Counted from the stretch's first letter, positions 9,116 to 64,000 are shown. The stretch: 64,000 nt of DNA from Candidatus Omnitrophota bacterium (GCA_043826565.1 JBDRPX010000012.1:7974-71973); one strand, 5' to 3'. Made by a program: numbers and translations. Notes: a model not told the origin generated them from the letters alone.

Positions 9116-9152
9116 ATTAAGTTTTTGCAGAAAGAATAAAGGAGGAAGTAAG

Positions 9153-10915: not shown

Positions 10916-11014
10916 CGATCAGTAAAAGATCGGCCAATGTCTCATAGCTGATGGTCGATGGACAAATTGAATAGTGTAGGGACAGGCCTGGGGCCTGTCC
11001 GGAGAGGGTTTGTT

Positions 11015-11383: not shown

Positions 11384-11565
11384 GTGGCGAAATCAAAAAT
11401 CAAAAGTCAAAATGCAAAATGACAAAGTAGAATTAAAAAAGAATTAAAGATTTAAAACAATAAAATTTTTAAAGATATGTTGAGCAAGTTTATAGAGTTA
11501 AATGTTTTTTGAATTTTGAATGACATTTTGATCTAAGAACAGGAACTTAAGGCGGAGATTTTTTT

Positions 11566-12072: not shown

Positions 12073-12162
12073 AAAGTCTCAGGTCGCAAGTCTCAAGTTA
12101 CAAGGAAAAGATAAAAACATTACACAAAAAAGGTTGTTAATACTAAAAAGAGGATCACAGTA

Positions 12163-13245: not shown

Positions 13246-13269
13246 TCAGGCAAAGAAAGAAGACGGGAT

Positions 13270-14871: not shown

Positions 14872-14910
14872 ACGGATGATCTTTAATGCTTAGGGAATAA
14901 TATGGGGTGA

Positions 14911-15452: not shown

Positions 15453-16007
15453 GTGTTTATGATTATTAAAAATAAACTAAGCATTTTGGTGGTTGATGAC
15501 AGCGCGACTATTCGTGAAACAATTGTCGGGCAGTTGCTTGCTCTGGGGTATGTTGCGCAAGGAGTTCCTTCCGCGGAAGAAGCAGAAAAGTTATTGTCTG
15601 AGGCAGATTTTGATATATTGTTTTTGGATATTAAGCTTAGCGGAATAGACGGGATGACATATCTGGAAACGATCAGGCAGTCTAAGGCTAATATTGCGGT
15701 TATTATAATGACGGCTTTTGAGTCCCCCAAAACAGCAGTCGAAGCAATTGAAAAAGGAGCCTGTGATTATTTGATTAAGCCGATTCAGGGAAAGCATTTA
15801 GAACTGATAATTCTTCGGGCATTAAGGCGCCGGCAGTTAGAGCGGGAGCGTAAAGACGCGATTGAGAAACGAATTAACGCATTGCTTTCATACACAAAAG
15901 ATACCCGAGATATGAAACTGGCAATTAATGCTCTTAAGCTGGAAGTGAATAATCTACTCATAGAGCTTGGGCAGCAGCCAAAGTACACGGTAATAGAAGA
16001 AGTTTAA
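15453..16007 (+). CDS. Response regulator receiver with C-terminal coiled-coil extension, embedded in the pilus operon
   Basis: ILVVDDSATI, ILFLDIKLSGIDG, VIIMTAFESP, YLIKPI. About 70 aa of helical tail. Confidence 0.75.
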   Translation: MFMIIKNKLSILVVDDSATIRETIVGQLLALGYVAQGVPSAEEAEKLLSEADFDILFLDIKLSGIDGMTYLETIRQSKANIAVIIMTAFESPKTAVEAIEKGACDYLIKPIQGKHLELIILRALRRRQLERERKDAIEKRINALLSYTKDTRDMKLAINALKLEVNNLLIELGQQPKYTVIEEV

Positions 16008-16040
16008 TAAGACATCCTATAAAGATCAGGTATAATTTGA

Positions 16041-16547
16041 ATGATATTATACCTAAAAATTATACCGGAGGTGACCATGGATAAAGAAAAAAAATTAAAA
16101 ATCGCAATTCCGATCCTTATACTCATTATGATCGGGGTATATTCACCGGTATTAAAAAATTCACGGGTTCGCCCTGATTCTTTGGTTCAGGAAAATCCTA
16201 ATGTTGCGGAAACTTTTGCCGGTGAAGAAGAATTTACCAATTTTTCTGATTTAGCGGGTATTCAGCGTCAGCATTCGCGAAGTAAATATCAGCAATGGAA
16301 GAGAGACCCTTTTGCGGAATATTCTGATGTTTCTCAGAGCGGCATCCCCCGGCTTCACGGGATAGTTTGGGATAGCCAGAAGCCCAAAGCCATAATCAAT
16401 GAAACTATCGCGGGAATCGGAGATACAGTCGCCGGAGTAATGATCATCGATATACAGAAATCTAAAGTATTAGTAAATAATGGAGAAAAGAACATAGAAT
16501 TAAAGGTTTATAAGCCGAAACAAGACAGTAAAGTGGAAAATAACTAA
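16041..16547 (+). CDS. PilP-like protein (TM anchor plus C-terminal beta domain)
   Basis: N-terminal TM (KIAIPILILIMIGVY). The C-terminal GIVWDSQKPKAIINETIAGIGDTVAGVMIIDIQKSKVLVNNGEKNIELKV resembles the PilP/GspC HR domain. Confidence 0.4.
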   Translation: MILYLKIIPEVTMDKEKKLKIAIPILILIMIGVYSPVLKNSRVRPDSLVQENPNVAETFAGEEEFTNFSDLAGIQRQHSRSKYQQWKRDPFAEYSDVSQSGIPRLHGIVWDSQKPKAIINETIAGIGDTVAGVMIIDIQKSKVLVNNGEKNIELKVYKPKQDSKVENN

Positions 16548-16573
16548 TAATACATGCTATAATTGCCCAAATG

Positions 16574-16602
16574 TTTGACATATTGCATAAAATAGTATAT
16601 AA
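16574..16602 (+). promoter_or_regulatory. Sigma70-like promoter TTGACA-17-TATAAT upstream of the REC-GAF-HK gene
   Basis: Read directly. The inverted repeat AGTATGC-N17-GCATACT lies just downstream (16613-16643). Confidence 0.4.
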
Positions 16603-16654
16603 TAGTATATAGAGAGTATGCAATAAATATAAAAACGCATACTATTGAATAATA

Positions 16655-18346
16655 GTGGATAAGATGGTGATAAGAATGGAAAAAGCAAGAATTCTGGTTA
16701 TTGATGATGAATCGGTTATTCGCCAATTACTGCTGCGTACTTTGCGTGATAAGGGGTATGATGTCGAGATCGCCGAAGACGGTAATCGGGCCATGGAGAA
16801 AATTAACGGCAGTATTTTTAACCTGCTCATTACTGATTTAAGAATGCCTAAGATTGGCGGTATGGAAGTGTTGGAGAAGATAAAGAAAACAAATCCTTAT
16901 GTGGAAGTTATGATCATAACCGGCTACCCGACGATAGAAGCCGCGGTCGCGGCAATTAAGATCGGCGCGTATGATTTTATTTGCAAACCGTTTGATTTAA
17001 AAGAAATCCAGCATAAAGTAGAGCTTTGTTTAGAGCGCCAAAAACAAAACATGAATAGGATCCAGGTAAGTGAGCTGGCCGCATTATTCGAATTGACGAA
17101 AGCAAGTATTTGTGTAAATTCAGAAGCGCACTTAGAGGAGCGGATCTTAACAACAGCATTAGAAATTACTTCTGCCGAACACGGGGCTTTATATTTATTT
17201 GATAAAGCCGGGAAGAATTTAAATATAGTTATAAATCAAAGTATCGGCGGAGAGGTAAGCTGGCATAATAAAATGAAGCTTAATGAAAAAGTTCTGGCGC
17301 AATGGGCTAAAAAAGGCGAGTCAATGTTAATTACCAATACAGATAAGGATGAGCAATGTAAAGATATTTTTCTTGCCGAAGAAAAACCGAAGTCTTTAAT
17401 TGTCGCGCCGTTAGTCAGCAATCCTTTGCGTTTTGAAGAAAGTATTTTGGGAGTACTTGTTCTCACGCAAACACGATCCAATGAAAATTTTACCAAAAGA
17501 AGCCAGTTATTAACTTCAATCCTGTCCGGGCAGGCGGCAACAATGATCAAAAATCTGGAATTATACCGGGAACTGGAAAAAAAGATCGACGCGCTTAAAA
17601 CTTCACTGCAGGAGCTTCACCAAACACAGGATCAGCTTATTCAGACGGAAAAGTTGTCCTCTGTGGGGCAATTGGCTTTTGGGATCGCGCATGAAATAAG
17701 AAATCCGCTGGGGATTGTCCAGGGCGGCGTGGATTATTTAGGCAGTCTTTTAAATGAAAAAGATAAAGAAATAACCGGGGCCGCGGAGAAAATAAAAAAA
17801 GCTATTGTCCGGGCAAATAATATAATTGTTGATCTGTTAAAATTTTCGCGCAGCTCCAAAATTACCTTGGAGCAGGTTGATATTCCCCGGGTAATCGAGG
17901 AATCCTTGTCATTGCTGAAAAATAAGGCATATTTAGGTAATGTTAAAGTAAAAACAAATTTTCCGGAGGATCTGGGACTTGTTGACGGAGATGCTTCGCT
18001 GCTGCGGCAGGTTTTTTTTAATATCTGTAATAACGCGGTTGACGCGATGCCTCAAGGAGGAGATTTGGTTATTAATGTTATTAATAAAAATGACGTTTCT
18101 TCCCAGGAACCGTCTATTCATATAGAAATAAAAGACACCGGAGAAGGTATCCCGGAAGGTGTTCAGTCAAAAATATTTGTTCCTTTTTTTACGACAAAAG
18201 ATCCCGGAAAAGGTACCGGGCTTGGTTTAAGTATCGTGCATATGATAATTGAACGCCACGGAGGCACGATCCGCGTAGAAAGTGACGGCCAAAAAGGAAC
18301 AACTTTCATTATTGAATTACCGCAATTTAGTATTTCAAAAACATAA
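16655..18346 (+). CDS. REC - GAF - histidine kinase
   Basis: ILVIDDESVI and LLITDLRMPKIGG (REC). GAF-like middle region. H-box AHEIRNPLGIV. G-boxes DTGEGIP and GTGLGLSIV. Confidence 0.85.
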   Translation: MDKMVIRMEKARILVIDDESVIRQLLLRTLRDKGYDVEIAEDGNRAMEKINGSIFNLLITDLRMPKIGGMEVLEKIKKTNPYVEVMIITGYPTIEAAVAAIKIGAYDFICKPFDLKEIQHKVELCLERQKQNMNRIQVSELAALFELTKASICVNSEAHLEERILTTALEITSAEHGALYLFDKAGKNLNIVINQSIGGEVSWHNKMKLNEKVLAQWAKKGESMLITNTDKDEQCKDIFLAEEKPKSLIVAPLVSNPLRFEESILGVLVLTQTRSNENFTKRSQLLTSILSGQAATMIKNLELYRELEKKIDALKTSLQELHQTQDQLIQTEKLSSVGQLAFGIAHEIRNPLGIVQGGVDYLGSLLNEKDKEITGAAEKIKKAIVRANNIIVDLLKFSRSSKITLEQVDIPRVIEESLSLLKNKAYLGNVKVKTNFPEDLGLVDGDASLLRQVFFNICNNAVDAMPQGGDLVINVINKNDVSSQEPSIHIEIKDTGEGIPEGVQSKIFVPFFTTKDPGKGTGLGLSIVHMIIERHGGTIRVESDGQKGTTFIIELPQFSISKT

Positions 18347-18355
18347 GGAGACATT

Positions 18356-18745
18356 ATGAGTATAAAAAATATTCTTTTAATTGACGACGAGGAAGATTTC
18401 TGTTTTTTTGTAAAACGTAATCTGGAAAGATCCGGAGGATTCGCGGTGCAATATACTACTGATCCGGAACAAGGGATAAAGCTGGCCAAAGACCATGCCC
18501 CGGACGTGATATTGCTGGATATTACGATGCCGAAAAAAGATGGATTGCAGGTATTGGCGGCCTTGAAAAAAGATAAAAAGACAATGGAGATACCCATAAT
18601 CATGCTGACTGCCGTAGAGGATGAATCGGCCAAATTAAGCGCCGCGCGGTATTACAGCGAAGAATATATTATAAAACCGATAACTTTTGAAATGCTTCAA
18701 GAGAGGATAGATGATGTTTTAAAACGTTACGGAAAGGATAAGTAA
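18356..18745 (+). CDS. Single-domain response regulator
   Basis: ILLIDDEEDF, VILLDITMPKKDG, IIMLTAVED, YIIKPI. Confidence 0.8.
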   Translation: MSIKNILLIDDEEDFCFFVKRNLERSGGFAVQYTTDPEQGIKLAKDHAPDVILLDITMPKKDGLQVLAALKKDKKTMEIPIIMLTAVEDESAKLSAARYYSEEYIIKPITFEMLQERIDDVLKRYGKDK

Positions 18746-18790
18746 TTTAACCTAACTTAAAGAGCAAATAAAGGAAAGAGGAGGTGTTCA

Positions 18791-19168
18791 ATGTCTTTAC
18801 AAAAAAAAGTATTGGTGATTGATGATGAGGAAGACTTTTCTTTTTTTGTAAAAAAGAATCTTGAGGTATCCGGGATGTTTAATGTTTTGGTAGCTACCAA
18901 CGGTGAGGATGGAATAAGGCTTGCCCGGATTGAACATCCGGATATTATTTTACTGGATGTAATGATGCCTTCGCTGGGAGGGCCGGATGTGGCGGATATT
19001 TTAGGTAATGACCCTAAGACCAAAGATATCCCGGTGGTTTTTTTAACAGCCATAGTCACAAAGGAAGAGATCGGCGTGGAAACAATGCGGGAAATCGGCG
19101 GCCAGAATTATATCGCCAAGCCTATATCCGCGGAAGACCTGATTGCGGCGATAAATAAAGTGGTATAA
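18791..19168 (+). CDS. Single-domain response regulator (paralog of 18356-18745)
   Basis: VLVIDDEEDF, IILLDVMMPSLGG, VVFLTAIVT, YIAKPI. Confidence 0.8.
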   Translation: MSLQKKVLVIDDEEDFSFFVKKNLEVSGMFNVLVATNGEDGIRLARIEHPDIILLDVMMPSLGGPDVADILGNDPKTKDIPVVFLTAIVTKEEIGVETMREIGGQNYIAKPISAEDLIAAINKVV

Positions 19169-19180
19169 AAAAAGGAAGAT

Positions 19181-20689
19181 ATGAGCGTACAAATGAAACG
19201 CAAAATTATATCTGTTCTGGGATTAATAACGGTGATCCCATGCCTGGTTGCTTATTATTTATCGGTAAGCATGCCCGAACAGACACCTTTTTTTATAAAA
19301 ATGATCGTAATTAGTATTACCGTGGTTATCGGTACCTTGGGAGGGGTTTATCTTTTAAGGTTTATGGAAATGGTCGCTAAGTTGTACGAAAAACTTATGA
19401 ATATCGCCAATGGCGATCTTGCGCAGGAGGTAAAACCCGCGCCGGAAAGCGGGACGGAAAATCTTGCCGATTCGATTAATAAAGTTACTCAGAAATTAAG
19501 AGAAAACGCGAATGAATTGGAAAAAAGGTCGATTCTTATTGAACGCTCCGCGCAGGAGATGAAAAGAAGGGATGAAATACGCTCAACATATCTGTCTACT
19601 GTAGCGCATGAATTAAGAGCGCCGTTGATAAATATAGATAAGAGCACATCATTTTTACTGGGTGAAGAAAATATTGCCCGGGAAGAAAAAGACAATCTTG
19701 TAAAAATTATCAGTACTAATGCCAAAAGGCTGATCCATATGGTTAATGATCTGCTGGATATATCCAGAATGGAATCCGGAGAAATGGTCCTGCGGTATGA
19801 TCTGGTTGATCTGCGGGATATTATTGAGGAAGCTTCCGGGTCTGTAGAACGATGGCGGAAAAGCAAAGAATTACAGCTGGTGCTTAAGATCGCTCCGGAT
19901 TTGCCTAAAGTATATGTGGATAGAGTCCGGATTGTTCAGGTGGTGATCAATCTTCTGAGTAACGCGATTAAGTTTACTCCGCCGCATGGGAAAATTATCG
20001 TAGAGTGTAAAACAACAGAAGGTTTGAAAAATAAAGATGAGCTTTTTGTTTTGGTGGAGGTGGATGATAACGGAACGGGTTTTTCCGAGGCAATACAGGA
20101 ATTATTGTTTGTAAGATATAAATTGCAGCAGGAGCTTGGTTCTTATCGGACCGTTCCGAATACGGGGCTGGGCCTGCCGATTGCCAAACAAATAATAGAA
20201 TTGCATGGCGGAAATATCTGGGCCCAAAGCAAAACCAACAGCGGCAGTAGATTTTCTTTTACGCTTCCGGTAAAAGCTCAGGTGCTTGGAGATAGTGAGA
20301 TTTTTACTCCGGGGATAGCGCAGAAGAAAATACTGGTGATCGATGATGAAAAAGAATTACGCGATCTCCTGACCCGGGAGTTTAACAAAAAAGGATATCT
20401 TGTCGATACCGCTTTCGATGGATTTGACGGATTTAAACGAGCGGTAAAGAATGAGTATGATGTTGTCATCAGTGATATCAGAATGCCGAATATGGATGGG
20501 ATTGAGTGTTTAAAAATATTAAAAAAAATGACTCCGCATACCCAGATAATCCTGATGACTGGATTCTCTATGGGGAAAAAGGTGCAGGAAATAATCGATC
20601 AGAATGCTTATGTTTGTGTGCAAAAGCCATTTGACCTGCCTGAATTATTAGCAATTGTGGAAAAGGCAAGCAGAAGGGGTAACAAGTGA
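19181..20689 (+). CDS. Membrane histidine kinase (2 TM - HAMP - HisKA - HATPase) with C-terminal REC
   Basis: Two TM helices. H-box AHELRAPLINI. G-boxes DDNGTGF and NTGLGLPIA. Receiver ILVIDDEKEL, VVISDIRMPNMDG, CVQKPF. Confidence 0.85.
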   Translation: MSVQMKRKIISVLGLITVIPCLVAYYLSVSMPEQTPFFIKMIVISITVVIGTLGGVYLLRFMEMVAKLYEKLMNIANGDLAQEVKPAPESGTENLADSINKVTQKLRENANELEKRSILIERSAQEMKRRDEIRSTYLSTVAHELRAPLINIDKSTSFLLGEENIAREEKDNLVKIISTNAKRLIHMVNDLLDISRMESGEMVLRYDLVDLRDIIEEASGSVERWRKSKELQLVLKIAPDLPKVYVDRVRIVQVVINLLSNAIKFTPPHGKIIVECKTTEGLKNKDELFVLVEVDDNGTGFSEAIQELLFVRYKLQQELGSYRTVPNTGLGLPIAKQIIELHGGNIWAQSKTNSGSRFSFTLPVKAQVLGDSEIFTPGIAQKKILVIDDEKELRDLLTREFNKKGYLVDTAFDGFDGFKRAVKNEYDVVISDIRMPNMDGIECLKILKKMTPHTQIILMTGFSMGKKVQEIIDQNAYVCVQKPFDLPELLAIVEKASRRGNK

Positions 20690-21063
20690 TGGCCAAATTG
20701 CTTATCGTAGATGATGATTTAGTGGTCAGAGATTTGTTTGAGCGGACCTTGTCCAAGGAAGGCTATGAAGTATTTACCGCTGAGACAGGAGAACAATGTC
20801 TTGAGGTTATCTCCAATGAAGGAGCGGATAATTTTGCTTTTGTGTTCCTGGATTTAAAAATGCCGGGGATTGGAGGGGAAAATACTTTTGAGATTTTAAG
20901 GCGCTGCTATAAAAAACTAAACATTATTGTAATTAGTGCTTACGGGATGTTTTGTACGCGGGCTAAATTAATTGAAAAAGGGAACGTGATATATTTGACC
21001 AAGCCGTTTGATATGGAGTATATAAAAATTTTGGTGCGGAACCGTATTAAAGAAAAAATATAA
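20686..21063 (+). CDS. Single-domain response regulator
   Basis: LLIVDDDLVV, FVFLDLKMPGIGG, IIVISAYG, YLTKPF. Its start overlaps the stop of the upstream kinase. Confidence 0.8.
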   Translation: MMAKLLIVDDDLVVRDLFERTLSKEGYEVFTAETGEQCLEVISNEGADNFAFVFLDLKMPGIGGENTFEILRRCYKKLNIIVISAYGMFCTRAKLIEKGNVIYLTKPFDMEYIKILVRNRIKEKI

Positions 21064-54123: not shown

Positions 54124-55033
54124 AAGGATCAACGCTCTTAAAAAAGAAAAAAACGCGGTAATCCTGGCACATAATTATCAATTGCCGGAAGTCCAGGATA
54201 TCGCCGATTATATCGGTGATTCCCTGGGGTTAAGCCGGCAGGCAGCGGATACAGACGCGGATGTAATTGTTTTTTGCGGAGTGCGGTTTATGGCGGAAAC
54301 AGCCAAGATCCTTTCTCCGGAAAAAACAGTATTGATCCCGGATATCAAGGCGGGGTGTCCCATGGCGGATATGATCACTGCCGAGCAGCTGCGCGAAGCA
54401 AAAGCCAGGAATCCGCAAGCGAAAGTATTATGTTATGTAAACACCTCTGCGGAAGTAAAGGCGGAAAGCGATCTATGCTGTACTTCGGCAAACGCGATTA
54501 ATATGGTTCAAGATGTTTTAGTGAATAATGAAGAAATACTATTTGTCCCGGACAAATATCTGGCCCGCTATACAGCTCAGTGTACCGGCCGGGAGTTTAT
54601 TTTTTGGCATGGGTATTGTCCGACCCATGTAAAAATTTTAGCGGAAGATATTCTCAGGCAAAAGCAGCTGCATCCGGAAGCGGAAGTAATGGTGCATCCG
54701 GAATGTAATGCCGAAGTATGCGGATTGGCAGATGCGGTCTTGTCAACCGGAGGCATGAGTAAATATGCCAGAGAATCTGCGGCGCGAGAATTTATCGTTG
54801 GAACGGAAAACGGGATGATTTATCCTTTACGCAAGGACAATCCCGGTAAAAAGTTTTACCCTGCCTCACTCCGGGCGATATGCCCCAATATGAAACTTAC
54901 TACATTAGAAAAAGTGCTGCATGCGCTTGAATATAATGAGCATGAAATTACTGTCCCCGAACATATCCGCGTTCCGGCCAAAGAGGCTATCGAGGCTATG
55001 CTTAACGGCGGAGAATTAGTTTTAAGTAAGTAG
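54110..55033 (+). CDS. nadA: Quinolinate synthase NadA
   Basis: RBS GAGGAGG. ILAHNYQLPEVQDIADYIGDSL and Cys ligands consistent with NadA. Confidence 0.8.
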   Translation: MDIIKRINALKKEKNAVILAHNYQLPEVQDIADYIGDSLGLSRQAADTDADVIVFCGVRFMAETAKILSPEKTVLIPDIKAGCPMADMITAEQLREAKARNPQAKVLCYVNTSAEVKAESDLCCTSANAINMVQDVLVNNEEILFVPDKYLARYTAQCTGREFIFWHGYCPTHVKILAEDILRQKQLHPEAEVMVHPECNAEVCGLADAVLSTGGMSKYARESAAREFIVGTENGMIYPLRKDNPGKKFYPASLRAICPNMKLTTLEKVLHALEYNEHEITVPEHIRVPAKEAIEAMLNGGELVLSK

Positions 55034-55104
55034 GTTATTGCCAGCGTCCAATCCAAGTGATACAATTAAAAGCATAATAACCTTAACTAAAGGGAGGAAG
55101 AGGT

Positions 55105-56088
55105 ATGCATGCTAATGAATTTTTTGAACGTTTATTCAGCAAAAAATTATCCCGTAAAGAATTTTTAAAAATAATATTTTCCGGAGCTGGGGTGCTGGCG
55201 ACAGAGAATTTTTTTGCAAAAGCAGCTAATGCTTTGTTCAGTCCGCCGGATTATTTTGGAAGGAAAAAACAGCAGCTTCAAGGCGCGTATGATCTGGTAG
55301 TTGCCGAAGGCGAAGACCCGGGGAAGATGGTCGCGGCGGCTCTGGAAGCTATGGGCGGAATGGAGAAGTTTGTTAAATCCGGAAGCACAGTATTGATCAA
55401 GCCTAATATTGCCTGGGACAGAACTCCGGAACAGGCGGCAAATACAAATCCTGATGTAGTCGCAGCGCTGGTGGAGCTTTGTTTTAAAGCCGGAGCAAAA
55501 AGAGTAAATGTTTTTGACAATCCCTGTAATGACGCCCGGAGCACTTATTTAAACAGCGGGATCCAACAGGCCGCGAAAGACCGCGGAGCAAATGTTTTCT
55601 TCCCTAATAAATGGAATGTGGTTACGGCTAAGTTTAAATACGAAAGCGAAATGGCGGACTGGGCTATTTTTCGGGAAGCTGTAGAATGTGATACCTTTAT
55701 CAATGTCCCGGTTTTAAAGCATCACCGGCTTACGGGATTAACGCTTTCGATGAAAAACCTGATGGGTATTTGCGGCGGTAATCGCGGGAATATCCATACC
55801 GGGATCGGGAAAAGACTGGTAGATCTAACTGATTTTATAAGCCCGGATCTAACGGTGATCGATGCTTATCGTGTTTTGGTAAGGAATGGCCCGGTTGGCG
55901 GAAATCTGGAAGATGTTGTGGCTATGAAGAAGCTGATCGTGGGAACAGATCCTACTCTTGCCGATACCTATGCCTGTAAGCTTATGAATATCGAGCCGTT
56001 ATCCGTTCCTTATATTGCTCATGCGGTAGAAAGAAATTTCGGCAGTATTAATATTGGTCAGGCTAATATTTTAAAAATAACCGCATGA
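55105..56088 (+). CDS. DUF362-domain protein (Tat-like N-terminus)
   Basis: LSRKEFLKIIFSGAGVLA signal. DUF362-like body commonly paired with ferredoxins. Confidence 0.5.
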   Translation: MHANEFFERLFSKKLSRKEFLKIIFSGAGVLATENFFAKAANALFSPPDYFGRKKQQLQGAYDLVVAEGEDPGKMVAAALEAMGGMEKFVKSGSTVLIKPNIAWDRTPEQAANTNPDVVAALVELCFKAGAKRVNVFDNPCNDARSTYLNSGIQQAAKDRGANVFFPNKWNVVTAKFKYESEMADWAIFREAVECDTFINVPVLKHHRLTGLTLSMKNLMGICGGNRGNIHTGIGKRLVDLTDFISPDLTVIDAYRVLVRNGPVGGNLEDVVAMKKLIVGTDPTLADTYACKLMNIEPLSVPYIAHAVERNFGSINIGQANILKITA

Positions 56089-57617
56089 AAAATAAAAAAT
56101 TAGTTTTTATCAGACTGGTTTCACAAATTGTTTTTTTCTTTGTTTTTGTGTATATTCTCTGGTCAACGACATATTCGCTTACCGGAAAGCTTCCTTCGGA
56201 ATTATTTTTTAAGATCGATCCTTTGCTCATGGTGATTACCGCGATAAGCGAACGGGTCTTATTGCCTGGTCTGATATTTTCTTTTATCATGCTGGGCCTG
56301 ACCTTGATCCTGGGAAGGTTTTTTTGCGGCTGGATCTGTCCTCTGGGTACGGCCATAGATTTTTTCGGCTGGCTGAATAAGAAAAAAGCTTTGGTGGATC
56401 CGGCGGTCAATCAGCGGGTTAGAAAAATTAAATTTTACATTCTGACCATTATTGCTGTCTTTGCGGTTTTCGGCATCCAGATCGCCTGGCTTTTTGATCC
56501 GATTGTCATCACCGGAAGATTTGTGTCGCTTAATCTTATTCCCTCTGTGACATTATTAATAGATAGTTTTTTTATTGCGATTATCCGCATGGTAAATCTT
56601 TATCAGCCGCTGCTTGATCTTTACCGCGTTTTACAGGAAAATATATTGGGGATAAAAGAAAGTTATTTTGCGCATGCCGGAGCTATTTTCGCGTTTTTTT
56701 TATTGGTTTGCGGAGTTTCCTTGCTTGTGTCCCGGTTATGGTGCCGGACACTTTGCCCCTTAGGAGCGCTTTATGCTTTTTTCAGCCGCGATGCCTTGCT
56801 CACCCGAAAGGTGGATGAATGTACTTTTTGCCATAAATGCAGCCGTCATTGCCGGATGAGGGCGATCAATAAAGATATGAGTTATGAAAAACAGGAATGC
56901 GTGTTATGCCTGGATTGTATATATGAATGCCCCTCAAGATCAACGCGTTTTGTTTTTCGGCGCGCAAAGGAAATAAAAAAAGGGGAAACTTCCTCCGGAG
57001 AAGGCGGTATTGTCCGCCGGGAGTTTTTGGTTTTAATGGCGGCTGCAGTTGGTGCGGTGTTTTTAAAAAGCAGAGGGAAAAAAAGAGAGGATGAACATAT
57101 CCGCGATGCGGTGCTTCTTCGTCCTCCGGCTGCGCTTAAAGAAGAAGAATTCTTAGCCCGCTGTATCCGCTGCGGTAACTGTATGAAAGTATGTCCGACC
57201 AATGCATTACAGCCGGTGATGATCGAATCCGGAGCAATGGCCATGTGGACCCCGCGCCTGGTTCCGGAAATCGGTTACTGCGAATATAATTGTACCTTAT
57301 GCCAGCAGGTGTGCCCCACGGGCGCGATCTCTAAAATATCTTTAGCGAAAAAACAGAAAATCAAGATCGGGATCGCTAAGATCAATAAAAAAACCTGCCT
57401 GCCCTGGGGAAAAAATAAAGAATGTATTGTCTGTGAAGAGCATTGTCCGGTGCCGGATAAAGCGATTAAAATTAAAGAAGAAATTATTGACGGCAAAGTA
57501 ATGCTGCGGCCGGAGATAGACGAAGACCTGTGTATCGGCTGCGCGATCTGCCAGACAAAATGTCCGGTGCGGCCGAGAGCAATTAGAACAGTACCGGAGA
57601 AAAGTGACCGGATGTAA
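56085..57617 (+). CDS. Membrane-bound polyferredoxin (NapH/MauN-like), multiple 4Fe-4S motifs
   Basis: Five or six TM helices. Motifs CTFCHKCSRHC, CVLCLDCIYECP, CIRCGNCMKVCP, CTLCQQVCP, CIVCEEHCP, CIGCAICQTKCP. Confidence 0.8.
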   Translation: MKNKKLVFIRLVSQIVFFFVFVYILWSTTYSLTGKLPSELFFKIDPLLMVITAISERVLLPGLIFSFIMLGLTLILGRFFCGWICPLGTAIDFFGWLNKKKALVDPAVNQRVRKIKFYILTIIAVFAVFGIQIAWLFDPIVITGRFVSLNLIPSVTLLIDSFFIAIIRMVNLYQPLLDLYRVLQENILGIKESYFAHAGAIFAFFLLVCGVSLLVSRLWCRTLCPLGALYAFFSRDALLTRKVDECTFCHKCSRHCRMRAINKDMSYEKQECVLCLDCIYECPSRSTRFVFRRAKEIKKGETSSGEGGIVRREFLVLMAAAVGAVFLKSRGKKREDEHIRDAVLLRPPAALKEEEFLARCIRCGNCMKVCPTNALQPVMIESGAMAMWTPRLVPEIGYCEYNCTLCQQVCPTGAISKISLAKKQKIKIGIAKINKKTCLPWGKNKECIVCEEHCPVPDKAIKIKEEIIDGKVMLRPEIDEDLCIGCAICQTKCPVRPRAIRTVPEKSDRM

Positions 57618-57718
57618 GCTTAAAAAACTATTTGACATATCCGGACATGTATCTTAAACTAGGGTAACTATCCAAATAAAACAATCCATAAAAAATAAAA
57701 TTAAAGGAGGAGTATAGT

Positions 57719-58465
57719 ATGAAGAAATTATTTATAGGATTTATTGTTGTCGTGATTTTGGCGGGTTTTGTTTTGCCGGCATTTGCCGAATATAAAGTGG
57801 TGCTTGATGTTACCGACTGGAAGAGTGAAACTTCCTTAGGCTATACCCGTGCTACCGGGAATACGCAAAACACCCAATTACTGGGATCTTTTGAGGCGGA
57901 GCGAAAAACCGATAAGGATCAGCTGACGGTTAAAGCGAACACTTTATATTCTTCTCAAAATAAAAAGATGGACGGACAAAAACATAATGGATCGATCCGC
58001 TATGGTTTTGATTTCTGGTCGGATCAGTGGTATGGCTTTATGAAGTTTGAAGCTGAGCATGATAAATTCGCGAATATTGATTACAGGCTGCTTCCTTCGG
58101 CTGGTGCGGGTTACTGGTTTTCCGATACCGAGGAATGGAAAGCTTTAGCTGAACTTGGTCTTGGTCTTGAACACACGGAATATTCGAATGGCGCGAAAGA
58201 AAGCACGGATGTTGTGCTAATCCCGCGCGCGTTTGCGGAAAAGAAAGTATTTACCGATTCCACTCTTTCTCAGGAAGTTATATTTTATCCTAATCTTGAT
58301 GAAGGAGATCAATACCGTATGCGCGCGGAAACAAGGTTTACCAATCCCTTAAGCGAGGAAATGTCTTTACGCTGCAGTTTTATTGATGAATACAATTCAG
58401 ATCCGGCGGGTGATTCAAAGAAGAATGATACCCGTTTAGTTACATCTTTAGTTTATTCATTCTAA
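57719..58465 (+). CDS. DUF481 (YdiY-like) outer-membrane beta-barrel protein
   Basis: Signal peptide. GYTRATGNTQ ... YGFMKFEAEHDKFANIDYRLLPSAGAGYWF pattern. Confidence 0.5.
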   Translation: MKKLFIGFIVVVILAGFVLPAFAEYKVVLDVTDWKSETSLGYTRATGNTQNTQLLGSFEAERKTDKDQLTVKANTLYSSQNKKMDGQKHNGSIRYGFDFWSDQWYGFMKFEAEHDKFANIDYRLLPSAGAGYWFSDTEEWKALAELGLGLEHTEYSNGAKESTDVVLIPRAFAEKKVFTDSTLSQEVIFYPNLDEGDQYRMRAETRFTNPLSEEMSLRCSFIDEYNSDPAGDSKKNDTRLVTSLVYSF

Positions 58466-58487
58466 TTTAAAGATAAAAAATAATAAT

Positions 58488-58530
58488 AAAACGCCCGTTT
58501 TAATTACACAATAATGCGGGCGTTTTATAT
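58488..58530 (+). terminator. Rho-independent terminator
   Basis: AAAACGCCCG-loop-CGGGCGTTTT followed by a T-rich tract. Confidence 0.7.
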
Positions 58531-58556
58531 TTCTGATTTTCAGCCGGGACAAATTC

Positions 58557-58585
58557 TTGACAAAGACAGTCCCCCGTCGTATTAT
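58557..58585 (+). promoter_or_regulatory. Sigma70-like promoter TTGACA-17-TATTAT
   Basis: Read directly. Confidence 0.4.
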
Positions 58586-58612
58586 TAATGTGGCAATAAT
58601 AAATTTTAAGAT

Positions 58613-59392
58613 ATGAAAAAACAAGAAAATAGATATTTATACGGCCCGGTATCTTCCTGGCGTCTGGGCCGCTCACTAGGCATAGATGCTTTATCCGGCA
58701 AGAAAAAAAATTGCAGTTTTAACTGCGTTTACTGCCAGATCGGACGGGCAGCGCCTTGTCCGAAAAGAAGAAAAATATTTGTACCGACCAAGAAAATCAT
58801 TGATGAGCTGAAACGTTTTCCCCGGGTACCGATCGATTATCTTACCTTTTCCGGTATGGGCGAGCCGACACTGGCAAAGAATTTAGGACAGATCATAAAA
58901 CATATCCGCAAAATCCGCCGGGAAAAAATAGCGGTAATAACCAATTCCTCATTAATTGATAATGCGCAAGTGCGTAAGGAAATTAAATTAGCCGACCTTG
59001 TCATGGCTAAGCTTGATTGCTGCGGCCCGGAATTATTAAACAAAGTAAATCATCCGGTTGGTTCGGTTACCTTTGATAAAATGGTCAGGGGGTTAAAAAA
59101 ACTCCGGAGTGAATATAAAGGAAAACTGGCTTTGCAGATAATGTTTGTAAAGGAAAATAAAAAATTCGCTTCCCGCATTGCCGAGATAGCTAAAGATATT
59201 GCACCGGATGAAGTACAGATCAATACCCCTTTGCGAAAAAATAAATGCGCGCCTTTATCAAAGCAGGAAATCGCCGAGATTAAAAAATTTTTCCACGGGT
59301 TTAATATTGTCAGTGTTTATGATCAGAAGCGGAAGAAAACTAAACCCATAAGCAGTAAAGAAACAGTGCGCCGCCGGGGGCAGAAAGACTGA
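58613..59392 (+). CDS. Small radical SAM protein
   Basis: CSFNCVYCQ (CxxxCxxC) near the N-terminus after YGPVSSWRLGRSLGID. Confidence 0.7.
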   Translation: MKKQENRYLYGPVSSWRLGRSLGIDALSGKKKNCSFNCVYCQIGRAAPCPKRRKIFVPTKKIIDELKRFPRVPIDYLTFSGMGEPTLAKNLGQIIKHIRKIRREKIAVITNSSLIDNAQVRKEIKLADLVMAKLDCCGPELLNKVNHPVGSVTFDKMVRGLKKLRSEYKGKLALQIMFVKENKKFASRIAEIAKDIAPDEVQINTPLRKNKCAPLSKQEIAEIKKFFHGFNIVSVYDQKRKKTKPISSKETVRRRGQKD

Positions 59393-59463
59393 TCTTAACC
59401 GGCCAGCTTTTTTATGTAACTAGCTTATGATTAAGGTGTTAGGCGATGGAGCTATTTGACTTT

Positions 59464-59492
59464 TTGAAAAGTCTAATAAAATATGGTATACT
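59464..59492 (+). promoter_or_regulatory. Sigma70-like promoter TTGAAA-17-TATACT driving the riboswitch
   Basis: Read directly. Confidence 0.45.
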
Positions 59493-59519
59493 TTAATTAG
59501 AGAGTATAAGGGAACTCTA

Positions 59520-59680
59520 TACCGATAATAGCAAACTCAGCGAAAGCTGGGGACGCAAAGCTCCAGAGCCTGAACCCGCCGAGAACTGCGGCGGAATGGC
59601 AGTCAGCTACCGAAGATAGGGTAATTTTTTTTGGAATTACTTTACCCCGTGGTGTAGCTATTGCCGCGGGGTTTTTTATT
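59520..59680 (+). promoter_or_regulatory. c-di-GMP-I (GEMM) riboswitch with intrinsic terminator expression platform
   Basis: AGCAAACUCAGCGAAAGCUGGGGACGCAAAGCUCCAGAGCCUGAACC matches the GEMM core (GGCAAACC...CGAAAG...GGGACGCAAAGCCUCCGGCCUAAACC of Vc2). GAAA tetraloop hairpin CAGC-GAAA-GCUG. P2 CCGCCG/CGGCGG. Terminator CCCCGUGG...CCGCGGGG plus U6 at 59644-59678. Confidence 0.7.
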
Positions 59681-59695
59681 TGCGAGATAAGGAGA

Positions 59696-60097
59696 GTGAT
59701 GATGGTTAGAATAAAAAAAGATAGGAGAGGTTTTAGTTTAGTTGAAATAATGATCGTTTGTTTATTTTTGGTTATTATTGTTTTTGGATTTATTTATCTT
59801 TTTAATGTCAGCTTATACTTGAACGAACAAACAAGAAATTCTATTATCGCGATCAATGACGCCGTTGCTGTGGTAGAGCGGATTAAAAATATTGAGCCGT
59901 TTTCTGTAACAAATTTAATCGCCGGTTATCCGGATGCGGGGTATATTGCCGGATATAATAATTTGGATAGTGAAAGCGTGCAGGTTAATTATGGGAATTT
60001 GGCGGCAGATCCGGTATTGGTAACGGTAACCGTGACTTGGCAGGGGAAAGAGCGTATTTTTTCAGAAGAGGTATCTACTTTTGTGACTAAACGATAA
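59696..60097 (+). CDS. Type IV prepilin-like protein
   Basis: DRRG^FSLVEIMIVCLFLVII prepilin cleavage motif. RBS AAGGAGAG. Confidence 0.75.
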   Translation: MMMVRIKKDRRGFSLVEIMIVCLFLVIIVFGFIYLFNVSLYLNEQTRNSIIAINDAVAVVERIKNIEPFSVTNLIAGYPDAGYIAGYNNLDSESVQVNYGNLAADPVLVTVTVTWQGKERIFSEEVSTFVTKR

Positions 60098-60118
60098 GAA
60101 TGGAAGACGGAGCTTACA

Positions 60119-60961
60119 ATGGGAAATAAAAAGATTAATAATAACAGAATAACTTCAGTGCGCGGAGTATCTTTAACGGAACTTCTAATTGTAAGTGTTA
60201 TTTTTTGCTTTATTACCGCGGTCTTATTAACAGTTTTATCTGTTTCTAAAAGCGCCTGGTATATTTCGGATACGCGCTCGGATGTTTACACTAATGCAAA
60301 GAAAGCAATGAGTGAGATGTTTATGGAGCTATTGGAGACCTCCAGCGGCGCCGTCGAAACATTTACTTTTATTGATCCGATAGACGGCGAATATAGAGAA
60401 TGTCTTTGGTTTGCTTCCGGAAGAGGAAGTGCTTCTGCGGCCGGAGAAGACGGCAGTGCAAATAATAGTTATGTGCATCTTGACGCGGATAATGTAGTAA
60501 GCTGGCGCGCGCTTGTTGTATACGCGATATATGAAACTCCGGATGGAGTGCAGCAATTAAGGCGTTATGTTGATCATGGGTCATCAACCGCATATTATAG
60601 CGGAGGTAATATTTTCCCGCTTACTTTTCTTTCCGCAACAACGACAACACTTAATTTTTTAGAAGCTGATGGAGTAACTGTTATTAGTATTAATCGAACC
60701 GGCGGAAGGGTTTTGGCGAATTATGTGGAAACCGAAGATACCAACAACAATGCAGTTTTAGATAGTAATGAGGATGATGGGGATATAAGTCAACCCCAGG
60801 ATAATGCTGACGGAGTACTTAATTCCGGTGTGAATTTTACAAAAAATGTAGGTAGTGTGGACATTACTTTATTTCTAAGAAGAGAAACAACTGCTCTAAG
60901 GGGAAGCGGTAGGGTATTAACGAGTACTTTAAGAAATACAGTTAAATTTCGTCAGCCATAG
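60119..60961 (+). CDS. Type IV prepilin-like minor pilin (280 aa)
   Basis: RG^VSLTELLIVSVIFCFI prepilin-type N-terminus. Confidence 0.6.
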   Translation: MGNKKINNNRITSVRGVSLTELLIVSVIFCFITAVLLTVLSVSKSAWYISDTRSDVYTNAKKAMSEMFMELLETSSGAVETFTFIDPIDGEYRECLWFASGRGSASAAGEDGSANNSYVHLDADNVVSWRALVVYAIYETPDGVQQLRRYVDHGSSTAYYSGGNIFPLTFLSATTTTLNFLEADGVTVISINRTGGRVLANYVETEDTNNNAVLDSNEDDGDISQPQDNADGVLNSGVNFTKNVGSVDITLFLRRETTALRGSGRVLTSTLRNTVKFRQP

Positions 60962-60981
60962 TGTTGAAAAAGGAGGCGTTT

Positions 60982-62043
60982 ATGTTAAAAAATGAAAAAG
61001 GAATGGTTTTAATCGTATTGTATTTGGTAGTGGGAGTATTGCTGGTATTTGTGGGAATGTTTTCATACAAAAGTATGTGGCAGGCCAAGACAGTGGAACG
61101 CTATAAAAATGGGGTAACATCTTTTTATTGCGCGGAAGCAGCTATTGACAAGGCTGTGGCAAAGTTGCCGAGCAATACTTCTTCGGAAAGCAATGTTGTT
61201 TTAAGTGATACCGGCGGGCAAGCTAGGGGAGAATTTTCTTATGTTGTTACCACTGTTGAAGTAGGTAAAAAATGGAAAGTGGAAAGTTGGGGCTATGTTC
61301 CGGATCAGGCTACGGCGGTTTCCGCCAGCAATTTGGAAGCTTATGTTGCTAAACAGGATCTGCCGTCTAATTTCTGGGAAAATGCGATATACACTGCGGG
61401 AAATGTAAGAGTTAACGGCAGTGCTTATGATATAGACGGAGATATTCGTTATGGAGGGTCGATGCTTCCCGGAGCATTGGATCCGACGATCTTTAGCGGA
61501 ACCTCTTATCCGGACGCAAGTATTAACCCTTTGGTGAGGTTAGATTATGACAATCTTAAACTTATTGCCGAAGCTCAGATTAAAGCTGACGGAAGCGATA
61601 ATGTTTACACCTTTAGTGAAATAGCTGCGGGAAATCCGCCGTTTCCCTCGACTTTTTGGTTTGATAGTTCAGACGCTGATCCTACAAAATGGGTTCCTAA
61701 TGTTGTCTATGTGGAAACAGATTTAATCCTCAACGGAAATGTTGGGACGATTGGAGGATTTTTACTGGTCGTCGGAGATGTTGTTACTAATCCGGGAGCA
61801 ACTTCAGAAACCATTATCAACGGAAACGGCCAAATTGACGGCTGTGTTTATAGTACCGGGCAGTTTCGAATTAATGGCGGTGGAGCAGGTCTTAATGTGC
61901 ATGGCGGAGTGTGGTCAGGCAGTGATGGGGTTCGTTTAAACGGCAGTATAACCATAGAATATGATGAAGACTATATGAATGCGATACGAGATGTTATTTG
62001 TCCAAGTTCAACTATACAGATTATTTCCTGGCGTAAGTTATAA
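60982..62043 (+). CDS. PilX_N-domain pilus-associated protein
   Basis: RBS AGGAGG. KGMVLIVLYLVVGVLLVFVGMF ... YCAEAAIDKA matches the PilX N-terminal pattern. Confidence 0.55.
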   Translation: MLKNEKGMVLIVLYLVVGVLLVFVGMFSYKSMWQAKTVERYKNGVTSFYCAEAAIDKAVAKLPSNTSSESNVVLSDTGGQARGEFSYVVTTVEVGKKWKVESWGYVPDQATAVSASNLEAYVAKQDLPSNFWENAIYTAGNVRVNGSAYDIDGDIRYGGSMLPGALDPTIFSGTSYPDASINPLVRLDYDNLKLIAEAQIKADGSDNVYTFSEIAAGNPPFPSTFWFDSSDADPTKWVPNVVYVETDLILNGNVGTIGGFLLVVGDVVTNPGATSETIINGNGQIDGCVYSTGQFRINGGGAGLNVHGGVWSGSDGVRLNGSITIEYDEDYMNAIRDVICPSSTIQIISWRKL

Positions 62044-62161
62044 CAGCTAAGGTTTGGTTGACGCGGTTTTTTATATAGGTTATACTTAACAAGTAAACTA
62101 TATATTTAACAAAATATTAGTTTATATTATTAATGAACTAAAGATGGATAATGAGGTTGAA

Positions 62162-62575
62162 ATGCGCAATAGACAGGGAAAAGGGTTTACCCTTATTGAG
62201 CTGTTGATCAGTTTGACAGTAATGTCGATAGTCCTGCTCGGCATAATCTCCGGATATATCGGATGTATATCCATAAACGAGATGTCGAAGAGTACAACTA
62301 TCGCTACCGAAGATGCCCGGAAAGTGATTGAACAAATGCGCAGTTACGCGGTTAGCTCCTTGACGAATATAACTAATGAAAATTGGACGACCTGGGCGGC
62401 GGCTAATGGGTTGAATGCTTTGGACTCTGAGCAGATCACCGTGACCTATTTTGATAATGACGGAAACGGAAATGCTTTGGATGATGATCCTTTGGAAGTG
62501 CGGGTGAGTGTGTCCTGGCAGGACAGACAGCGCGCCAGAAGCCTGAATATGGGAACATTACTAACGGTAAGATAA
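62162..62575 (+). CDS. Type IV prepilin-like protein
   Basis: RQGKG^FTLIELLISLTVMSIVLL. Confidence 0.75.
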   Translation: MRNRQGKGFTLIELLISLTVMSIVLLGIISGYIGCISINEMSKSTTIATEDARKVIEQMRSYAVSSLTNITNENWTTWAAANGLNALDSEQITVTYFDNDGNGNALDDDPLEVRVSVSWQDRQRARSLNMGTLLTVR

Positions 62576-63106
62576 GTGATGATAAATATGAAAAAAGGAG
62601 AAAGCGGATTTACTTTTGTTGAATTAATGGTTGTAGTCTCTATTTTCGGGATGATTGTCATCGTTATCGCGGCAATTTTATCCGGCGGAAGGCGGGCCTG
62701 GCTGACCAGCGAAGCGCAGATTGATGTCCATTCCTCGGTACGCGGGGCGATGAGCAGGATAACTGAGGAAATCGGCGGGGCTGGCCCGGGGAATGTTTCC
62801 ATTACTAATATTAGCGCGAGTGAGGATAATATTACTTTCCGGAATCCGATTTCTTTTACCAGCGGCGCGGTAGTTTGGAGTGATCAAATTCAATTTTCTC
62901 TGGGCGGTCTTAACGGGCAGCAGATTGTCCGGACTAATCTTAATACCGGAGCAACGGATAATTTTGGGAATTATATTACAACATTACAATTTGCGCAGCC
63001 GGCAACGGATATTATTGAAGTGGGGCTGGTAACAGCCCGTCAGTCGGTTATCGGTGATAATTTACAGATGCAGTTGACTTCTCAGGTGACGCTGCGTAAC
63101 AGATAA
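62576..63106 (+). CDS. Type IV prepilin-like protein (start possibly ATG 62588)
   Basis: KGESG^FTFVELMVVVSIFGMIVIV. Confidence 0.75.
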   Translation: MMINMKKGESGFTFVELMVVVSIFGMIVIVIAAILSGGRRAWLTSEAQIDVHSSVRGAMSRITEEIGGAGPGNVSITNISASEDNITFRNPISFTSGAVVWSDQIQFSLGGLNGQQIVRTNLNTGATDNFGNYITTLQFAQPATDIIEVGLVTARQSVIGDNLQMQLTSQVTLRNR

Positions 63107-63117
63107 GGGAGGTATGC

Positions 63118-64000
63118 TGTGAATAAGCATCTTAAGAATTTAACAAAAAAACTGCAGAGTGAAGACGGCGCGGCAATGGTATTTCTTTTTATGGTAATGA
63201 TTGTTCTGACCATTCTGTTTATTTCGTTTATGTCGCGAAGTGTCGGCGATAACCGGGCGGCGCAAGGCAATAAGGATGTTCTGCAGGCATGGTACTTAGC
63301 GGAAGCAGGTATTGATCAGGTAAAACGGGAATTATATGAGTTGTTCTCGGTGTATTATGTTACTCAGGGGCAGACCACAACGGCATTTACGTGGTTTGAT
63401 GATCTGACTACTGATCCGACAAGTAAATACCCGGGTATCCCGACCGGTCAAACATTAACCAGCGTATCCGGAGGTTCTTATACTGTACAAATAACCGCAG
63501 TGGATACAGCTACGGCAGTGCCTAAAGATATTACGGTTGTCAGTACGGCTACGGTGAATAATGTTTCTAAAAGTGTAACTGCGGTTATCCGTTATTCCAT
63601 GAGCCCTTCTAAAGTATTTGATTTCTCTTATTTTGTTAATAATTACGGCTGGTTTTGGGGCGGCGGAATAACCAGCCAGGGAGATATCCGTTCCAACGGT
63701 GATTTTAGTTTTGGCGGTAATCCGGAAGTAAACGGAGATGTTTATGCTTCGGTAAATCCGGATCTGGGCGCCGCCGGAACAATTGGCGGTAATCACAAAA
63801 ATGATACGCTTAGCCAGTATTGGACACAGGCTGATGCTCAGGCCCGCCCGACAAACCCCACAGCTAATCCGCAGGATATTGACGGAGACGGCATCGATGA
63901 AGAATTTGATTATGAGCATGGGTATGACGGGGATAGTGAGGAATTTCCCTCACAGCAGTTATTAGATATGCCGTATCTGGGCAATCTTGATTATTATAAA
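63118..64000 (+). CDS. PilX_N-domain / tip-adhesin-like protein, 3' end outside window (GTG start)
   Basis: GTG after GGGAGG. MVFLFMVMIVLTILFISFMS ... VLQAWYLAEAGIDQV is PilX_N-like. The frame stays open to the window end. Gly/Asn-rich repeats resemble the 12163-13245 protein. Confidence 0.55.

Follow-up and report, generated by a model that had tools for sequence, protein, structure and literature searches.

Is the leader in front of a set of pilin genes a riboswitch and, if so, which signal does it read, in which direction does it act, and over which genes? This question is raised by a locus near the 3′ end of a stretch of 64,000 nucleotides (nt) from a Candidatus Omnitrophota bacterium (GCA_043826565.1, JBDRPX010000012.1:7974-71973; the whole stretch is called the window, and positions are counted from its first letter). 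The Omnitrophota are uncultured, and the surface machinery predicted for them consists mainly of type IV pili. A sequence-only reading had taken the leader for a riboswitch of the c-di-GMP-I (GEMM) type, i.e., one that binds cyclic dimeric guanosine monophosphate (c-di-GMP). Our results make it rather probable that an accessory type IV minor-pilin operon of this bacterium carries in its 5′ leader a functional cyclic-dinucleotide riboswitch of the GEMM-I class, which would act through the OFF mechanism proposed below. The genes behind the leader are numbered O1 to O7, with O1-O2-O3 as cassette A and O4-O5-O6 as cassette B.

The GEMM-I aptamer and its relatives

The aptamer and its parts, all on the plus strand, are the following:

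59514-59622, plus strand: GEMM-I aptamer including helix P1 (Rfam RF01051 and covariation in alignment A2)
59514-59520 with 59616-59622, plus the pairs C59523-G59612 and G59524-C59611: P1
59521-59530: junction J1/2
59530, plus strand: ligand-specificity nucleotide A, equivalent to pilM A13, Gs1761 A14 and Vc2 G20
59531-59556: P2, with the GAAA loop at 59542-59545
59559-59608: P3

When the whole window was scanned against Rfam 15 with Infernal, the only match at the gathering threshold was RF01051 (c-di-GMP-I), at 59520-59614 on the plus strand, spanning the full model (positions 1-87 of 87) and scoring 65.5 bits versus a gathering score of 35 (E-value 1.4e-10). A permissive rescan of 59300-59800 returned RF01051 again and no other credible Rfam match. 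The Rfam model named by the sequence-only reading thus recognizes the leader significantly, and the parts that it had listed are in place, namely the GEMM core GGGACGCAAAGC at 59550-59561, a GAAA-tetraloop hairpin at 59536-59551 and a second helix, which is P3. All the conserved core nucleotides and helices are intact. In addition, the GNRA-type (GAAA) loop is accompanied by a receptor-like P3 segment, which reads CCUGAA...AAUGG in the window versus CCUAAG...UAUGG in the syntenic locus L011.

The window, seven relatives without large insertions and two validated riboswitches, Cd1 (c-di-GMP, OFF) and pilM (3′,3′-cyclic GMP-AMP, hereafter cGAMP; ON), whose sequences come from the supplement of PMC9262584, were brought together in alignment A2. 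With a manual structure, 92.3% of the cells of A2, which counts 11 sequences, are paired versus 24-37% in slid controls, and P1, P2 and P3 show 13 pairs changed on both sides, with none of 500 shuffles reaching the observed values. Note that this structure was taken from the window sequence, which tilts the test somewhat in its favour. As judged from sequence, the element is a bona fide GEMM-I class riboswitch, equipped with promoter, aptamer and intrinsic terminator.

Relatives were gathered as 38 Omnitrophota loci retrieved via alignment of O3 homologues, to which a metagenome scan with a 24-nt 3′ aptamer motif added L040-L046, all of them Rfam matches. GEMM-I matches to Rfam, always on the coding strand and upstream of pilin genes, were found in L011 (a canonical aptamer of 74 bits), L016, L017, L018, L019 and L031. 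The rare c-di-GMP-I-GGC variant (RF03167; 61.2 bits versus a gathering score of 59) lies at 2163-2252 of L024, part of another Omnitrophota metagenome-assembled genome (MAG), where it is followed by a gene for a GspG/PilA-like major pilin; we know of no ligand for this variant. Of these loci, L016-L019, L024 and L031 belong to more distantly related Omnitrophota.

Three relatives carry aptamer insertions between a ‘GAC’-like junction and a GC-AAA segment (L009 4499-4700, L010 about 4300-4530, L044 1369-1489). In L009 the junction is enlarged by about 40 nt and in L010 by about 120 nt, and L044 has two extra small hairpins there, while the P3 loop holds an insertion in L009 and a hairpin of about 40 nt in L010. 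L044 still scores 55.7 bits. L009 drops to 30.8 bits, short of the gathering score of 35, the covariance model preferring the inserted hairpin as P2, and L010 gives no match. L009 and L010 keep the same 5′ and 3′ aptamer halves. Such inserted aptamers may be a four-way-junction variant or decaying copies.

Promoter, terminator and the direction of control

The elements around the aptamer, on which any regulation would depend, are as follows:

59464-59492, plus strand: sigma-70-type promoter, with -35 TTGAAA at 59464-59469, TG at 59484-59485 and -10 TATACT at 59487-59492 (spacing 17)
59605-59659, plus strand: predicted antiterminator, AGCUACC (59605-59611) with GGUGUAGCU (59651-59659) around the spacer hairpin
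59617-59644, plus strand: spacer hairpin, in competition with P1 since its 5′ strand and the 3′ strand of P1 overlap (minimum free energy, MFE, folds)
59644-59678, plus strand: intrinsic terminator, with an 11-bp stem (7 G-C) and a 7-nt loop at 59644-59672, then U6 at 59673-59678 (terminator scan and MFE folds)

The promoter consensus scan gives 10 of 12 matches with the TG and places the probable transcription start near 59499; alone, such a scan carries no statistical weight (12 sites found versus 12.2 expected). Nearly all related leaders (L009-L011, L040-L046, L016, L019 and L024) do, however, carry the motif TGnTATACT some 25-35 nt ahead of the aptamer. The sigma70-like promoter claimed beforehand is recovered as TTGAAA-17-TATACT with TG, its extended -10 being kept in relatives, and the claimed intrinsic terminator is present too, as 11 pairs followed by TTTTTT; it recurs with compensating sequence changes in L009, L010, L011, L040, L042 and L045.

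Six leaders with A at the ligand-specificity position (A20 in Vc2 numbering) were folded in two states, with the aptamer 3′ strand either blocked, as a mimic of the bound form, or free, the nascent RNA of the free state being cut before the terminator 3′ strand. With the strand blocked, the terminator forms in 6/6 leaders. With the strand free, all six form a long-range helix that joins the aptamer 3′ strand to the 5′ strand of the terminator, at -10 to -20 kcal/mol versus -0.7 to -7.4 kcal/mol when blocked (for the nascent RNA of the window, -16.2 versus -3.6 kcal/mol). The antiterminator partners differ by lineage yet remain complementary (CAGCUACC with GGUGUAGCU, CAGUUGCC with GGCAGCUG), and an alternative register pairs G59619-G59621 with C59645-C59647. 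A hairpin also occupies the spacer position in six of six orthologous leaders, with different sequences. As an antiterminator alone, the spacer hairpin was rejected for the window, where its best register coexists with the terminator.

Since the terminator forms in every leader whose aptamer 3′ strand is blocked, ligand binding should not be able to prevent termination, and an OFF switch is predicted because the bound aptamer, which ends at 59622 and does not overlap the terminator, would have no means of blocking it. Fold modelling makes it reasonably likely that the operon is shut at high signal, a direction on which the sequence-only reading had made no statement. In the proposed mechanism, transcription would start a few bases past the TGnTATACT promoter, near 59499, and the nascent RNA would fold into the three-helix aptamer (59514-59622). 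With ligand bound, P1 and the aptamer 3′ strand would be sequestered, the 59644-59678 hairpin and U-tract would form, and transcription would stop before O1. Without ligand, the aptamer 3′ strand (AGCUACC...GGGUA) would pair with the 5′ half of the terminator around the spacer hairpin, the terminator could not form, and the polymerase would read into O1-O7.

A known parallel in layout is Cd1 (Cdi-1-3), the class I riboswitch of the C. difficile flgB operon, which has the GEMM-I fold, the GAAA tetraloop on P2, a separate intrinsic terminator coexisting with the aptamer and an antiterminator using the aptamer 3′ strand (PMC9262584, PMC6366702). Cd1 is an OFF switch on a surface-appendage operon; its polarity is experimental, and that of the window element is predicted. 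It differs by G20 (c-di-GMP), by flagellar genes in place of pilins, and by its host (Firmicutes, not Omnitrophota).

In an ON switch, the opposite polarity, the ligand would prevent termination and induce the pilin cassettes. Such a switch has precedent on its side, as both pilus-related cyclic-dinucleotide riboswitches studied experimentally are ON, that of Geobacter pilM for cGAMP and that of C. difficile pilA1, of class II, for c-di-GMP (PMC9262584, PMC6366702), and the antiterminator evidence from the window alone is statistically weak. We consider an ON switch improbable all the same. In pilM, the aptamer and the terminator overlap and are mutually exclusive (PMC9262584), whereas the terminator of the window is separate from the aptamer and is present in every fold with a sequestered aptamer 3′ strand (6/6 leaders), and we found no pairing through which a bound aptamer could obstruct it; with aptamer and terminator not overlapping, a pilM-type ON switch was rejected. 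As to the regulated genes, pilM serves assembly genes and not minor pilins, and the pilA1 riboswitch (Cdi-2-4), which resembles the window element in the cyclic-dinucleotide control of type IV pilin transcription by termination (PMC6366702), has an unrelated class II fold, is an ON switch and serves a major pilin. The OFF polarity predicted here would thus be opposite to that of the two pilus riboswitches studied so far.

Several points weigh against the explanation proposed here, including its OFF mechanism. As many antiterminator cross pairs are reached by 29.6% of the shuffles for the window and by 2.6-10% for the orthologues, which are related, so that the joint significance is overstated, and the MFE of the window is matched or undercut in 9% of shuffles. 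The best register of the window's spacer hairpin leaves the CCCC of the terminator free, and the full-length MFE fold always contains the terminator; any regulation must therefore be kinetic. Furthermore, cassette B could evade riboswitch control through a promoter-like site ahead of O4 (62058-62086), and neither a cGAMP synthase nor a diguanylate cyclase (GGDEF, CD-NTase) was found in the roughly 69 kb of the genome that were covered (the 64 kb of the window and 5 kb beyond it).

A full-length fold that always terminates would also suit a decaying or non-regulatory relic, made up of an aptamer-like sequence and a constitutive attenuator. The syntenic leaders of L009 and L010, with their large insertions and below the Rfam threshold, and the closest O3 homologues, which lie at other loci without riboswitch, could be taken in the same sense. 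However, the core nucleotides and helices are all intact, the score is far over the threshold, and compensatory changes keep P1, P2, P3 and the terminator across orthologues, all of which makes a relic very unlikely.

The ligand

If the leader is an OFF switch as proposed, which dinucleotide would close it? The position equivalent to G20 of Vc2, the class I riboswitch of V. cholerae, is A59530 (in the Rfam alignment, an A opposite the consensus G at model position 11). In Vc2, G20 forms a pair with a guanine of c-di-GMP; the corresponding base in cGAMP riboswitches is A (PMC6140456). Both the cGAMP-sensing GEMM-Ib riboswitches and the bispecific ones are characterized by this A (PMC6140456, PMC6456294), and the A20G change turns a Geobacter cGAMP riboswitch to c-di-GMP selectivity (PMC6456294). 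The remaining two ligand-contact positions are canonical in the window, A59557 (A47) and C59610 (C92), so that its genotype is A20-A47-C92 and not the c-di-GMP-type set G20/A47/C92 (Vc2 numbering), though the fold is that of the family. The equivalent of A59530 is kept in six orthologous leaders, and alignment columns 19-20 read UA in the window, these six orthologues and pilM versus AG in Cd1 and the G20-type relatives.

The GEMM-Ib riboswitches of Geobacter, pilM (Gmet) and Gs1761, which respond to 3′,3′-cGAMP, share with the window element the GEMM-I fold, A20 and a location upstream of type IV pilus genes (pilMNOPQ), on which they act via an intrinsic terminator (PMC9262584, PMC6456294). 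Their J1/2, CGA(C/U)AAUA, is identical to that of the window at 7/8 positions (PMC9262584 and its supplement; PMC6456294), as seen when CGAUAAUA of the window is set against CGACAAUA of pilM. Because position 20 is an A, c-di-GMP cannot be assumed as the ligand: of the c-di-GMP-I riboswitch claimed by the sequence-only reading, the GEMM-I family stands, and the assumed ligand does not. Together, A59530 and the J1/2 match to pilM indicate that the ligand may be 3′,3′-cGAMP or both dinucleotides, i.e., that the aptamer may sense cGAMP besides, or in place of, c-di-GMP.

Against a cGAMP-selective aptamer stands the lower part of P2, whose basal pairs G59531-C59556 and C59532-G59555 are G-C/C-G as in the c-di-GMP riboswitches Vc2 and Cd1, and not the C-G/U-G found next to A20 in Geobacter GEMM-Ib (CU...GG in pilM); point mutations in lower P2 affect selectivity (cited in PMC9262584). 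For this reason, cGAMP competence is predicted, and not cGAMP selectivity. The same A20, A47, C92 genotype on G-C/C-G basal pairs is known from Vc2 G20A, which binds both ligands with dissociation constants (Kd) of 53 nM for c-di-GMP and 120 nM for cGAMP (PMC6140456); that RNA is an engineered mutant of a translational riboswitch, whereas the window element is natural and transcriptional. An A20 on Vc2-like P2 pairs is thus expected to accept 3′,3′-cGAMP and probably c-di-GMP too. The safest prediction is therefore an aptamer competent for cGAMP and probably also for c-di-GMP, its selectivity not being callable from sequence, and the ligand acting in the cell would depend on which dinucleotide the organism makes.

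The distribution of A20 and G20 copies bears on the same issue. In the close set of leaders with the 24-nt 3′ motif, every A20 copy precedes a pilin cassette, and, where the next gene is identified, the G20 copies are followed by a response regulator (L044) or by a secreted-type protein and then a response regulator (L046). The two versions have near-identical 3′ halves and coexist in the same phylum, and L044 (G20; 1369-1489) and L045 (A20; 7861-7950) even come from the same metagenome, Ga0180009. Pilin clusters with a G20 copy in front of them do occur in more distant Omnitrophota. The pattern of downstream genes suggests two specificities, which it fits without proving them. For L046, the G20 riboswitch lies at 8805-8889, and the secreted-type open reading frame (ORF) behind it is small.

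We put forward only tentatively the further-reaching idea that an A20 lineage of Omnitrophota riboswitches senses 3′,3′-cGAMP rather than c-di-GMP, beside G20 riboswitches for c-di-GMP, and acts as an OFF switch on an exchangeable pilus-tip cassette slot (A, B or A+B). It is likewise possible, though doubtful, that the element is a canonical class I riboswitch specific for c-di-GMP, in which A20 is tolerated via a protonated-adenine pair and c-di-GMP is the sole physiological ligand. Indeed, the best Rfam match is RF01051, the basal P2 pairs are of the Vc2/Cd1 type, A20 aptamers bind c-di-GMP via a stably protonated adenine, as in Vc2 G20A (PMC6140456), and Omnitrophota proteins with c-di-NMP receptor domains have been reported (PMC12448109). 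In contrast, the coexistence of A20 and G20 forms in one phylum and even one metagenome, their different downstream contexts in the close set, and the UA at columns 19-20 common to the window and the validated cGAMP riboswitch pilM argue against a specificity for c-di-GMP alone. If the cGAMP-sensing lineage exists, cGAMP, so far linked to riboswitches mainly in Geobacter, would choose the minor-pilin or adhesin set on the pilus, and this setting of pilus decoration would concern uncultured, possibly host-attached nanobacteria.

The operon, its slot and the wider window

The genes behind the leader, with Pfam cut-offs of 21.2 bits for N_methyl (PF07963) and 25.5 bits for PilX_N (PF14341), are the following:

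59702-60097, plus strand: O1, 131-residue prepilin-like protein, RRG↓FSLVE; ribosome-binding site AAGGAG at 59689-59694; in the ORF list, and the gene call on contig L001 agrees; N_methyl 19.0 bits, under the cut-off, with weak ComGE, PilV and GspH N-terminal matches
60119-60961, plus strand: O2, 280-residue prepilin-like protein, RG↓VSLTE (motif read from the sequence); N_methyl 13.7 bits, under the cut-off
60982-62043, plus strand: O3, PilX-like protein of 353 residues; beta-solenoid preceded by a long helix at the N-terminus (homologues, AlphaFold)
62162-62575, plus strand: O4, 137-residue prepilin, KG↓FTLIE; N_methyl 34.9 bits, TIGR02532 26.7 bits, PilV-like match
62588-63106, plus strand: O5, 172-residue prepilin, SG↓FTFVE; N_methyl 21.2 bits, exactly at the cut-off
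63119-64000 (window end), plus strand: O6, PilX-like protein of 561 residues in full, ending 804 nt past the window on L001

O1, O2, O4 and O5 carry class III signal peptides with G↓(F/V)(S/T)(L/F)xE motifs, and NCBIfam gives only weak minor-pilin matches for them. Four prepilin genes had been announced: the motif is visible in all four ORFs, and matches to PF07963 at the cut-off are confined to O4 and O5. The two announced PilX_N genes are likewise borne out in part. O6 matches PilX_N at 19.4 bits, below the cut-off, and its N-terminus aligns to that of O3, for which no PilX_N match was found in Pfam at E <= 0.1; at least nine O3 homologues have a precomputed PF14341 assignment, and several are named PilX N-terminal domain proteins. 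As far as sequence allows, both are thus best called PilX-like, below the threshold for PilX_N membership. O3 is 100% identical to ABII88_03490 at NCBI, which is annotated as hypothetical in a Candidatus Omnitrophota MAG.

In the AlphaFold model of O3 (mean predicted local distance difference test, pLDDT, 87.4), an N-terminal helix of 57 residues leads into a beta-solenoid, and the best PDB matches of the model by Foldseek are DUF3494 ice-binding proteins (E-value 5e-5, template modelling (TM) scores of 0.24-0.53). With such TM scores an ice-binding function was not adopted, and the matches are taken for the beta-solenoid fold alone. Weaker PDB matches are the C-terminal domains of tapirins. 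Tapirins are pilus-locus adhesins of Caldicellulosiruptor. The beta-solenoid matches of the modelled O3 suggest a tip adhesin.

Each gene of cassette B has a paralogue in cassette A, O4 in O1, O5 in O2 and O6 in O3 (O4 and O1 are 32% identical, and O5 resembles O2 over about the first 90 residues), which makes the operon a tandem of two three-gene cassettes. Each encodes two pilins, one small and one larger, and a PilX-like beta-solenoid protein, which together would probably form alternative pilus-tip or priming complexes. The Logan contig L001, 100% identical to the window over 54778-64000, reaches 5 kb further and shows O6 followed by O7 (170 residues, secreted, low-complexity), a terminator-like hairpin, the membrane protein O8 and ftsH. 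The hairpin has 13 bp and lies at 10602-10633 of L001, and the promoter-like site before O8 is a strong one (TTAACA-18-TATAAT, 11/12 matches). With this hairpin after O7 and this site before O8, the unit under riboswitch control probably ends with O7 and comprises O1-O7, so that the six-gene operon of the sequence-only reading gives way to one of probably seven genes.

The spacer between O3 and O4 (62044-62161) contains the promoter-like site at 62058-62086 (TTGACG-17-TATACT), which could be a riboswitch-independent start for cassette B. A similar segment (GGTTATAATATAAGTAAACTA) separates the riboswitch terminator from the O4-like gene in L040 and L045, and the spacer may be the junction where cassette B joined behind cassette A.

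Comparison of the loci points to a conserved slot. The syntenic loci L009-L012 have the order DUF481, radical SAM, leader, cassette, O8 and ftsH; in the window, the slot corresponds to 58613-59392 and then to 59702 onwards, with cassettes A and B in tandem. An A20 riboswitch with promoter and terminator occupies the same slot in L009, L010, L011, L040 and L045, and the short locus L042 has an A20 riboswitch before a cassette-B pilin gene, being too short for the flanks. L040 and L045 have the same DUF481/radical-SAM slot but carry cassette B (O4-O5-O6-O7 type), so that slot and riboswitch are conserved while the cassette varies (A, B or A+B), which suggests that cassettes are exchanged downstream of a riboswitch that stays in place. 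The closest O3 homologues (67-73% identical; L002-L008 and L020) were expected to have a riboswitch as well, and none does; their loci are unrelated, and the regions upstream of them are short and not conserved.

Cyclic-dinucleotide riboswitches before pilus genes are established for Geobacter pilMNOPQ and C. difficile pilA1 (PMC9262584, PMC6456294, PMC6366702); GEMM-I riboswitches in this position are already known, and the basic finding is ordinary in this respect. A full-text literature search found no paper tying Omnitrophota to riboswitches beyond incidental mention. What would distinguish the present case, going by sequence comparison, is the A20 genotype in a new phylum, the predicted OFF polarity on pilin genes, and the conserved riboswitch slot with exchangeable minor-pilin cassettes. 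If confirmed, it would (i) offer a testable handle on second-messenger control of pilus-tip composition, with an RNA of about 110 nt and two ligands, (ii) extend cGAMP-type riboswitches to a new phylum, and (iii) provide natural A20/G20 pairs on near-identical scaffolds for specificity studies.

Elsewhere in the window, Pfam scans revealed a core type IV pilus cluster with a receiver (REC) domain, a PilB-like ATPase, PilC, a GspG-like major pilin, two pilins, an O3 paralogue, a PilM-PilN fusion and PilO:

7060-15444: core type IV pilus cluster
7499-9115: PilB-like ATPase with MshEN
10466-10915: GspG-like major pilin
10958-11383 and 11566-12072: two further pilins
12163-13245: 360-residue O3 paralogue

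No riboswitch was found in this cluster by the Rfam scan of the window, and 10958-13245 forms a third module of the pilin-pilin-PilX-like kind that has no riboswitch. What the riboswitch controls are therefore accessory cassettes and not the only minor-pilin set, and the idea that it governs the whole minor-pilin set fails, since the third module lies outside its unit.

In the window ORFs covered by the Pfam scans, no GGDEF, EAL, HD-GYP or PilZ domain was found, in agreement with the earlier statement that the window has no GGDEF/EAL/PilZ gene. Regular-expression matches to GGDEF, EAL, HD-GYP and PilZ motifs were chance-like only; as an example, a RxxxR...DxSxxG match at 16266 was rejected as PilZ-type, its ORF having no Pfam match even at E 0.1. 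The pilus cluster is flanked by unusually dense response-regulator and hybrid histidine-kinase genes (395-4819 and 15453-21063), with at least 10 receiver domains, PAS and GAF sensors and a Fis-type helix-turn-helix protein, and none of the genes in these two runs has a cyclic-dinucleotide output domain. Finally, the MshEN N-terminus of the PilB-like ATPase (LLGESLVEEGIITAEQLRQAKGEE) matches the published 24-residue c-di-GMP motif only in part, and MshEN is a possible protein receptor for c-di-GMP within the window.

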